Position numbers and translations under genes: made by a program | Part shown: one piece after another, positions 26,357 to 26,735 of the stretch | Layout of the letters: each line of letters begins with the position of its first letter | Numbering within the stretch: position 1 is the stretch's first letter | NCBI RefSeq assembly: GCF_030028105.1 | Contig: NC_092402.1 | Coordinates: forward strand, 28,566,843 to 28,630,842 | DNA: 64,000 nucleotides | Source of the DNA: Mobula birostris | Lineage: Eukaryota | Direction: 5' to 3' | The notes under the pieces: model-generated | The model's input: the letters and a program-made list of their open reading frames with translations, nothing else | Told to the model about the DNA's origin: nothing | The model's database searches: none

Positions 26357-26735
26357 GGGTGACATAGTATTGCAGCTTGTAGAGTTGCTGCCTCACCGAT
26401 CCAGGTTCATTCCTAACCTTCAGTGCTGCCTGTGTGGAGTTTGCTGATTCTCCTTGTGACTGCATGGGTTTCCATCAGGTGAGAAAATCTGCAGACACTG
26501 GAAATCCAAGCAACACATGCAAAATGCCGGAAGAACTCAGCAGGTCAGGCAACATCTATGGAAAAGAACACAGTTGACATTTCGGGCTGAAACCCTTCAG
26601 CAGGTCCTGAAATGTCTCAGCCTGAAACGTCAACTGTACTCTTTTCCATAGATGCTGCCTGGCCTGCTGAGTTCCTCCAACACTTTGTGTTTGTTGCTTC
26701 TATCAGGTGGTCTGGTTTTCTCTTACATCTTTAAA
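26357..26735 (+). mobile_element. V-SINE interrupted by a hammerhead-repeat insertion
   Basis: tgtgtggagtttgc..ttctccttgtgactgcatgggtttccatcaggtg resumes after the insert as atcaggtggtctggttttctc. Confidence 0.75.
26482..26697. mobile_element. Palindromic (head-to-head) Penelope-derived hammerhead repeat with 12-bp TSD
   Basis: Two arms of about 95-120 bp are reverse complements meeting near 26604. Flanks are ttccatcaggtg (26470-26481) and ttctatcaggtg (26698-26709). Confidence 0.85.

Follow-up and report, generated by a model that had tools for sequence, protein, structure and literature searches.

A palindromic terminal-repeat insert in Mobula birostris as a probable product of two-ended integration by a Penelope-like element

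A stretch of 64,000 nucleotides of the Mobula birostris genome (NCBI RefSeq assembly GCF_030028105.1, contig NC_092402.1, positions 28,566,843 to 28,630,842 of the forward strand; hereafter the window) contains a SINE that is interrupted by a short inverted dimer. What kind of element leaves behind a palindrome devoid of open reading frames, and by what route? An earlier note on this DNA had described the palindrome as two head-to-head copies of a hammerhead repeat that arrived in a single target-primed insertion. For its origin the note had offered either an extreme truncation/inversion of a Penelope-like element (PLE) or a self-standing, retrozyme-like unit. Our analysis favours the former. 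We put at roughly 0.8 the probability that the insert is a decayed, gene-less piece of a PLE resulting from one integration, in which both nicks primed short copies of the terminal repeat and these copies were joined head to head.

The insert occupies a single site, 26482-26697, and its length is 216 bp, exactly as first described. Its left part lies on the minus strand and consists of a "tail" of about 26 nt (26482-26507), which represents the 3' end of the element and is common to six other copies in the window (73-92% identity), followed by a tail-bearing arm (26508-26604) with a damaged minimal hammerhead motif whose core starts at 26603. After the head-to-head joint (26604-26605, placed from the sequence and from aligned contexts) comes an inverted, tail-less arm on the plus strand (26605-26697), which also includes a damaged minimal hammerhead and is 90% identical to the copy at 62588-62680. 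The inverted stretches proper, 26508-26600 and 26607-26699, are 93 nt each and 83% complementary; the arms differ at 16 of 93 positions, and 14 of these differences are transitions. The two head-to-head copies of the earlier note were thus borne out, but the arms are unequal: the tail nucleotides of the left arm have no pairing partner at the right end. For the same reason, and because the repeat is tied to an element with reverse transcriptase (RT) and GIY-YIG domains, we rejected a MITE. An assembly artefact was rejected in view of the 16 differences between the arms. RNA folding predicts a single long hairpin for either strand (-130 kcal/mol, z -16.0 for the plus strand; -147.8 kcal/mol, z -16.4 for the minus strand), and none of 200 shuffled controls folded as stably. 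The suggestion of a hairpin of about 95 bp is therefore a sound prediction: if transcribed, the insert would be expected to fold into a 93-bp hairpin. The joint had been placed near 26604, at the ribozyme core. The position holds, but it corresponds to the 5' edge of both cores, with an overlap of about 1 nt, and lies about 27 nt upstream of either predicted cut site (after 26631 on the plus strand and after 26576 on the minus strand). Joining at the cleavage site was rejected on account of this distance.

The insert is flanked by a direct repeat (26470-26481 and 26698-26709, both on the plus strand), in which 11 of 12 positions are identical. This is significant (p = 0.0012) against 4000 random flank pairs that were allowed the same slack of ±5 at each end as the insert; the inner edges of the repeat are ambiguous by 1-2 nt owing to microhomology. 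Alignment with three other SINE-like copies in the window shows that the 5' part of the host SINE (26345-26469 on the plus strand, start approximate) is continued beyond the second 12-mer (26710-26738, plus strand), so the SINE is indeed split and resumes after the insert. In all three copies, which align across the insertion position, the 12-mer is present only once. Consequently, a duplication intrinsic to the SINE was rejected, and a significant target-site duplication (TSD) of this kind supports the proposal of a single target-primed insertion. The left junction is also present in the read data, since one contig of sequencing run X1, possibly the source of the window itself, matches 25800-26509 without a single difference. 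The host SINE is a dispersed repeat, as seen both in window alignments and in sequencing-run contigs, and it is a putative V-SINE. In V-SINEs a tRNA-derived head is followed by a conserved V domain some 120 bp long; a search for such a head with ARAGORN found no tRNA. The SINE as a whole (26345-27140) has been split twice, by the palindromic insert and by a reversed SINE at about 26739-27040, and its 3' part seemingly resumes near 27060. A Pfam scan of 287 open frames in the window (150 of at least 45 aa near the insert and 137 of at least 72 aa elsewhere) detected no host exon, although short exons would escape such a scan. It returned retroelement-type matches (RVT_1, GDSL esterase, ALKBH8_N) and two weak strays. 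LINE-type remnants with these domains are located at 2865-3461, 6700-7290, 15471-15791, 36184-39198 and 58738-59923.

To which family does the arm repeat belong? A BLAST search within the window found the arm or its extension at about 10 places. The most informative of these is a copy of 949 bp at 30968-31916 on the plus strand, composed of an inverted tail-less repeat, a region with CxxC and GIY-YIG, a 3' region, a direct repeat and the tail. In other words, it has the same ends as the palindromic insert placed around some 720 bp of internal sequence. On its ribozyme strand, this long copy retains a decayed endonuclease region (31083-31456), with the CxxC motif ahead at 31086-31097. The translation of 31083-31376, with X at two stops, matched the Pfam GIY-YIG model with E = 2.5e-4 and 21.7 bits, just below the cut-off of 22.6. 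Proteins of Hypanus sabinus and Mobula hypostoma share 86% identity with the decayed endonuclease (17 matches among 36 candidates). Of the matching proteins, five were scanned; all had GIY-YIG and two had RVT_1 as well, both domains being present in relatives with identities of 64% and 47%. The long copy retains no RT, and the palindromic insert has no open reading frame, so that the linkage to RT and GIY-YIG is at the family level, via the long copy and its relatives. Since the GIY-YIG region sits between copies of the same repeat and relatives carry both RVT_1 and GIY-YIG, the arm repeat is identified, by sequence, as the pseudo-LTR (pLTR) of an endonuclease-bearing PLE. Judging from the CxxC linker, the insert likely belongs to the Neptune type; the linker points to Neptune, with the motif reported in Nematis and Naiad as well (PMC8557442). 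A fuller CX2-5CxxC motif, a Zn-finger-like linker, is present in one of the 86%-identical proteins (P0002). Another, weak fragment of a GIY-YIG region is found at 19311-19415 (53% identity to P0002 over 36 aa), with no recognised pLTR nearby. Exact-pattern scans returned zero loci in metagenome contigs and zero in viral contigs. We also observed that three NCBI models of ray host-gene isoforms, namely mucin-2, divergent protein kinase domain 1C and chitinase domain protein 1 (P0004, P0005 and P0014), include PLE coding sequence; exonisation and annotation error are candidate readings.

The layout of a tail half followed by an inverted tail-less arm is shared by the palindromic insert and four other inserts in the window. 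Apart from the long copy, these are mini-inserts at 33680-33825 (tail half of 55 nt, inverted arm of about 90 nt), at 60760-60891 (tail half of 38 nt, inverted arm of 96 nt, no overlap) and an older one at 23110-23270 (tail half of about 66 nt plus an inverted arm). While the tail half varies greatly in length (about 38, 55 and 66 nt, 123 nt in the palindromic insert and 844 nt in the long copy), the ends of the inverted arm are nearly fixed. In all five inserts the arm ends within about 8 nt of one tail-less point, and its start falls in the range from about -7 to about +4 relative to the first core base. The tail, 26 nt in the palindromic insert and about 30-38 nt in its siblings, is absent from every one of the five inverted arms. 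A significant adjacent flanking repeat accompanies three of the five inserts (11/12 in the palindromic insert, 12/12 at 33.7 kb and 12/13 at 60.8 kb; p about 0.001 or less). The 12/12 repeat counts for less, because it resembles the family's own tail end; this mini-insert landed inside the tail end of an older family member, of which it duplicated 12 bp (33668-33837). An adjacent TSD is absent from the older mini-insert and from the long copy. The latter has a 10/11 direct repeat (30940-30970 and 31935-31950; p about 0.005), the tail-side copy of which is displaced by about 20 nt from the end of the element, and this may possibly be a TSD with filler DNA.

Such a combination of one tail-bearing and one tail-less end fits what is known from biochemistry. 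For PAc, a Poseidon element of the anole, both target strands were reported to be nicked and extended in vitro, reverse transcription started at two internal sites, separated by about 30 nt, between which the tail lies, and uncut (unprocessed) RNA served as the template (Frangieh 2024, PMC11167929). By analogy, the endonuclease would nick both strands about 12 bp apart, and reverse transcription of the pLTR RNA would begin twice: from one nick at the tail end, and from the other at a second site some 30 nt further inside. Each copy would run through the uncut ribozyme, and repair would then join the two short copies. In the palindromic insert both copies would have come to a halt at the ribozyme's 5' edge, and the shortest symmetric product would have resulted. 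The inverted arms hold uncut ribozymes, in agreement with the unprocessed template used in vitro (PMC11167929), and in the 60.8-kb sibling the two halves abut where the tail-less arm ends, that is, at the second start site. The analogy spans two clades, as PAc is a Poseidon element and the insert belongs to another clade; moreover, joining of two short cDNAs and palindromes without open reading frames are not among the features of PAc considered here (PMC11167929).

An inverted arm could also be produced within a single insertion if the 3' end of one cDNA folded back and primed a copy of the same strand, as was proposed for Penelope elements of bdelloids under the name of self-priming (PMC3846280). 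The palindromic insert taken by itself would agree with such fold-back, because its inverted arm is wholly contained in the tail half. There is even a sixth case in the window that looks like fold-back self-priming: within 33827-33969, a tail-bearing arm is followed by a 21-nt inverted piece (33949-33969), whose start coincides with the predicted cut site and with four matching nucleotides contributed by stem I. However, in three of the five inserts BLAST found no arm-length complementarity between the halves; in these the inverted arm was not copied from the tail half, and fold-back could not have generated them without later deletions. Fold-back also leaves the fixed tail-less end of the arm unexplained, whereas this end matches the second start site observed in vitro (PMC11167929). 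We therefore favour two-ended priming and regard fold-back as an improbable origin of the palindrome.

That the palindrome is instead the sum of two independent insertions, the second having entered the 5' end of the first back to back, is in our opinion scarcely credible. It would account for the 17% difference between the arms, and in a family this abundant nested insertions do occur, as the 33.7-kb sibling, itself residing in an older copy, illustrates. Nevertheless, the unit as a whole lies between the two copies of a single repeat, with no evident repeat at the joint, both arms have the same subfamily bases, and the pairing of a tail-bearing with a tail-less end recurs in all five inserts. 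The comparison of arm ages turned out to be neutral. The two arms are no more alike (82%) than either of them is to other copies of the subfamily (83-90%), as the inverted arm matches two unrelated copies at 90% and 86% identity and the tail arm matches both at 83%. Any proof of a shared template has been erased by age.

If both copies stopped at the same place, what stopped them? Candidate causes are the 5' end of the RNA, a splice boundary or a structural block. For D. virilis, the start of the Penelope transcript was reported some 120 nt ahead of the helix I border; 46 bp separate it from an intron of 75 bp, which at its 3' side ends at helix I (PMC2377424, PMC4209133). This upstream start weakens the simplest idea, that of the RNA 5' end. 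A splice boundary and a structural block are equally plausible, since a pyrimidine run followed by AG is found at the same place in the long copy. This site (31765-31790), directly before helix I of the intact 3' pLTR, matches both the D. virilis intron end and the start of the arms in most short copies, and can be viewed as a candidate splice acceptor. The 5'-edge rule is not universal, because joints in the sequencing-run contigs often resume downstream of the cut site (among the matches listed, several same-strand joints do so at 26633-26654).

How does the insert compare with known PLEs? An inverted truncated copy at the 5' end together with a tail of 30-40 bp at one end is standard for these elements (PMC8557442; PMC8969392), an inverted pLTR with a tail at one end was likewise described by Arkhipova (2013, PMC3846280), and units with inverted pLTRs in Adineta are surrounded by TSDs of 8-10 bp (PMC3846280). 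The endonuclease-bearing Neptune and Poseidon elements, as described there and elsewhere (Craig 2021, PMC8557442; Schostak 2008, PMC2377424), share with our copies a pLTR next to an inverted pLTR, a tail restricted to one end, TSDs of about 10 bp, strong truncation on the 5' side and, as in the long copy, GIY-YIG with an upstream CxxC. Compared with these published elements, the palindromic insert has neither an open reading frame nor a second direct pLTR, measures only 216 bp in its entirety, and has a TSD of 12 bp rather than the 8-10 bp of the Adineta examples (PMC3846280). The two start sites bounding the tail, the double nicking and the uncut template of PAc (PMC11167929) fit the two fixed ends of our copies. 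The insert thus represents a known PLE layout (a tail-bearing pLTR and an inverted tail-less one within a TSD) in its shortest form, and not a new kind of element. The layout match with published insertions and the identity of the arm as the terminal repeat of a GIY-YIG element together support the initial view of the insert as an extreme PLE truncation/inversion product. Our search of the literature, mostly outside subscription journals, found no report of palindromic pLTR inserts without open reading frames in rays, and the supplements of PMC11167929 and PMC4209133 may contain such copies.

There is also a parallel outside PLEs. In LINE-1 twin priming, the 5' part of the copy is inverted relative to the 3' part inside one TSD, and the two halves abut or overlap slightly. 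The inversion inside one TSD and the abutting halves of the 60.8-kb sibling are reminiscent of this process. Unlike in LINE-1, the second priming site of the PLE lies at a fixed internal position, poly(A) is missing, and complete overlap of the halves is possible.

As a single locus, the insert matters little, being an old and damaged insertion of a known retroelement class and most likely a neutral fossil. Its interest lies in the origin of inverted PLE ends: self-priming was proposed in 2013 (PMC3846280), and in vitro work of 2024 demonstrated the two internal start sites, the later steps still awaiting validation (PMC11167929). Short inserts are frequent (five in 64 kb), and a genome-wide table of their joints could therefore test two-ended priming against fold-back in vivo. 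Moreover, these inserts supply the genome with dispersed, ready-made hairpins of 90 bp. In Drosophila, siRNA was reported to arise from inverted Penelope copies (PMC3681739), and the ray hairpins would be no more than candidates for such a role. Two features seem particularly worth a genome-wide count: the fixed stop at the helix I border and a possibly amplified joint with TTA in the middle, which emerged from the comparison of sequencing runs.

For this comparison, contigs of four runs (X1, X5, X9 and X13) were matched to 25800-27150, and "opposite strand" joints were set aside, since we took them to be single arms that matched a part of each arm. The abundance of the family is very high, with about 91,000-119,000 contigs per run matching this stretch, which also holds SINEs. 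Among the 15 joints listed (2057 more exist) none skips the insert as an empty site would, and no listed contig spans 25800-27150. Among the contigs listed, at least four (one from X1, two from X13 and one from X5) cross a core-to-core joint similar to that of the palindromic insert, with 82-89% identity. Such recurrence of a joint in three runs would be expected if the palindrome were a copy of a self-standing non-autonomous element, retrozyme-like or hairpin-like, that moves as a unit. However, these contigs differ by 2-8 gap letters, and in X1 and X13 their depth is close to that of the flanks. The one from X1 represents another locus, because the X1 flank is identical to the window. Hence, symmetric core-to-core inserts recur, but amplification of the 26604 joint is without support.

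A different head-to-head joint, connecting 26542 to 26636 with TTA between them and lacking the ribozyme, behaves otherwise. Its depth reaches 417 in X13, 51 in X5 and 22 in X1 (0 in X9), compared with flank depths of about 9, 3-4 and 7 (5 in X9), and it occurs in several sequence variants among the matches listed. Contig depth does not measure copy number, and a fixed joint could be carried along within another repeat; the TTA joint may accordingly be an amplified palindromic PLE derivative or a passenger. Still, it is the best lead for a mobile palindromic derivative. The palindromic insert itself is very unlikely to be a copy of such a self-standing element, since all five inserts in the window have different joints. 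One may go further and speculate that ray genomes preserve a large natural record of two-ended PLE integration, in the form of short inserts whose inverted arm extends from a fixed second start site to a fixed stop at the helix I border of the ribozyme, and that some of the gene-less head-to-head units later multiplied as an independent palindromic, non-autonomous family that differs from tandem retrozymes; at present we would rather bet against this broader scenario, though not heavily.

The retrozyme-like option deserves separate mention. Non-LTR retrozymes are described as tandem units derived from PLE pLTRs (bioRxiv 10.64898/2026.07.22.740005), and they resemble the palindromic insert in being non-coding, hammerhead-bearing and pLTR-derived (bioRxiv 10.64898/2026.07.22.740005; PMC7229834). 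In contrast, their units are arranged head to tail, each with a whole type I hammerhead, whereas the insert is head to head, has a PLE tail and both of its motifs are damaged. The insert accordingly falls outside the definition of a non-LTR retrozyme, and with the joints differing among siblings as well, this half of the original proposal is not supported for the palindromic insert.

How firm is the hammerhead itself? Rfam returned no match at the gathering score over the 64 kb, and at a weak level it gave seven matches near the insert, generic hairpins or chance hits, none of them a hammerhead. The label is based on a by-hand register on the minimal type I motif of Cervera and De la Pena (PMC4209133); in this sense, the hammerhead repeat of the earlier note survives as a fit to the minimal motif but not as an Rfam call. 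In this register, all 13 core positions and all five stem I pairs are preserved in the long copy's 3' pLTR. In the palindromic insert, the minus-strand motif has the A6C change, two of five stem I pairs and has lost the ACGU palindrome, while in the plus-strand motif the first core box is 3 nt short or truncated. Judged by these changes, both ribozymes are damaged and probably inactive, A6C alone being a natural active variant (PMC7151607). Common features with the minimal hammerheads of PMC4209133 include type I topology, an unpaired base before helix II, a G-C pair at the base of helix II and a palindromic four-base stand-in for helix III. The insert differs from them in its helix II of 4 bp, in the damage to both copies and in that copies on opposite strands cannot form a tandem dimer. 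Pairs of minimal hammerheads on opposite strands, 100-700 bp apart, were reported in Schistosoma (PMC4209133), whereas the cut sites of the insert are closer, about 56 bp apart. The A6C change is common to two copies of one subfamily (26597-26603 and 62589-62595), and in other ribozymes it is a reported natural variant that favours manganese (PMC7151607).
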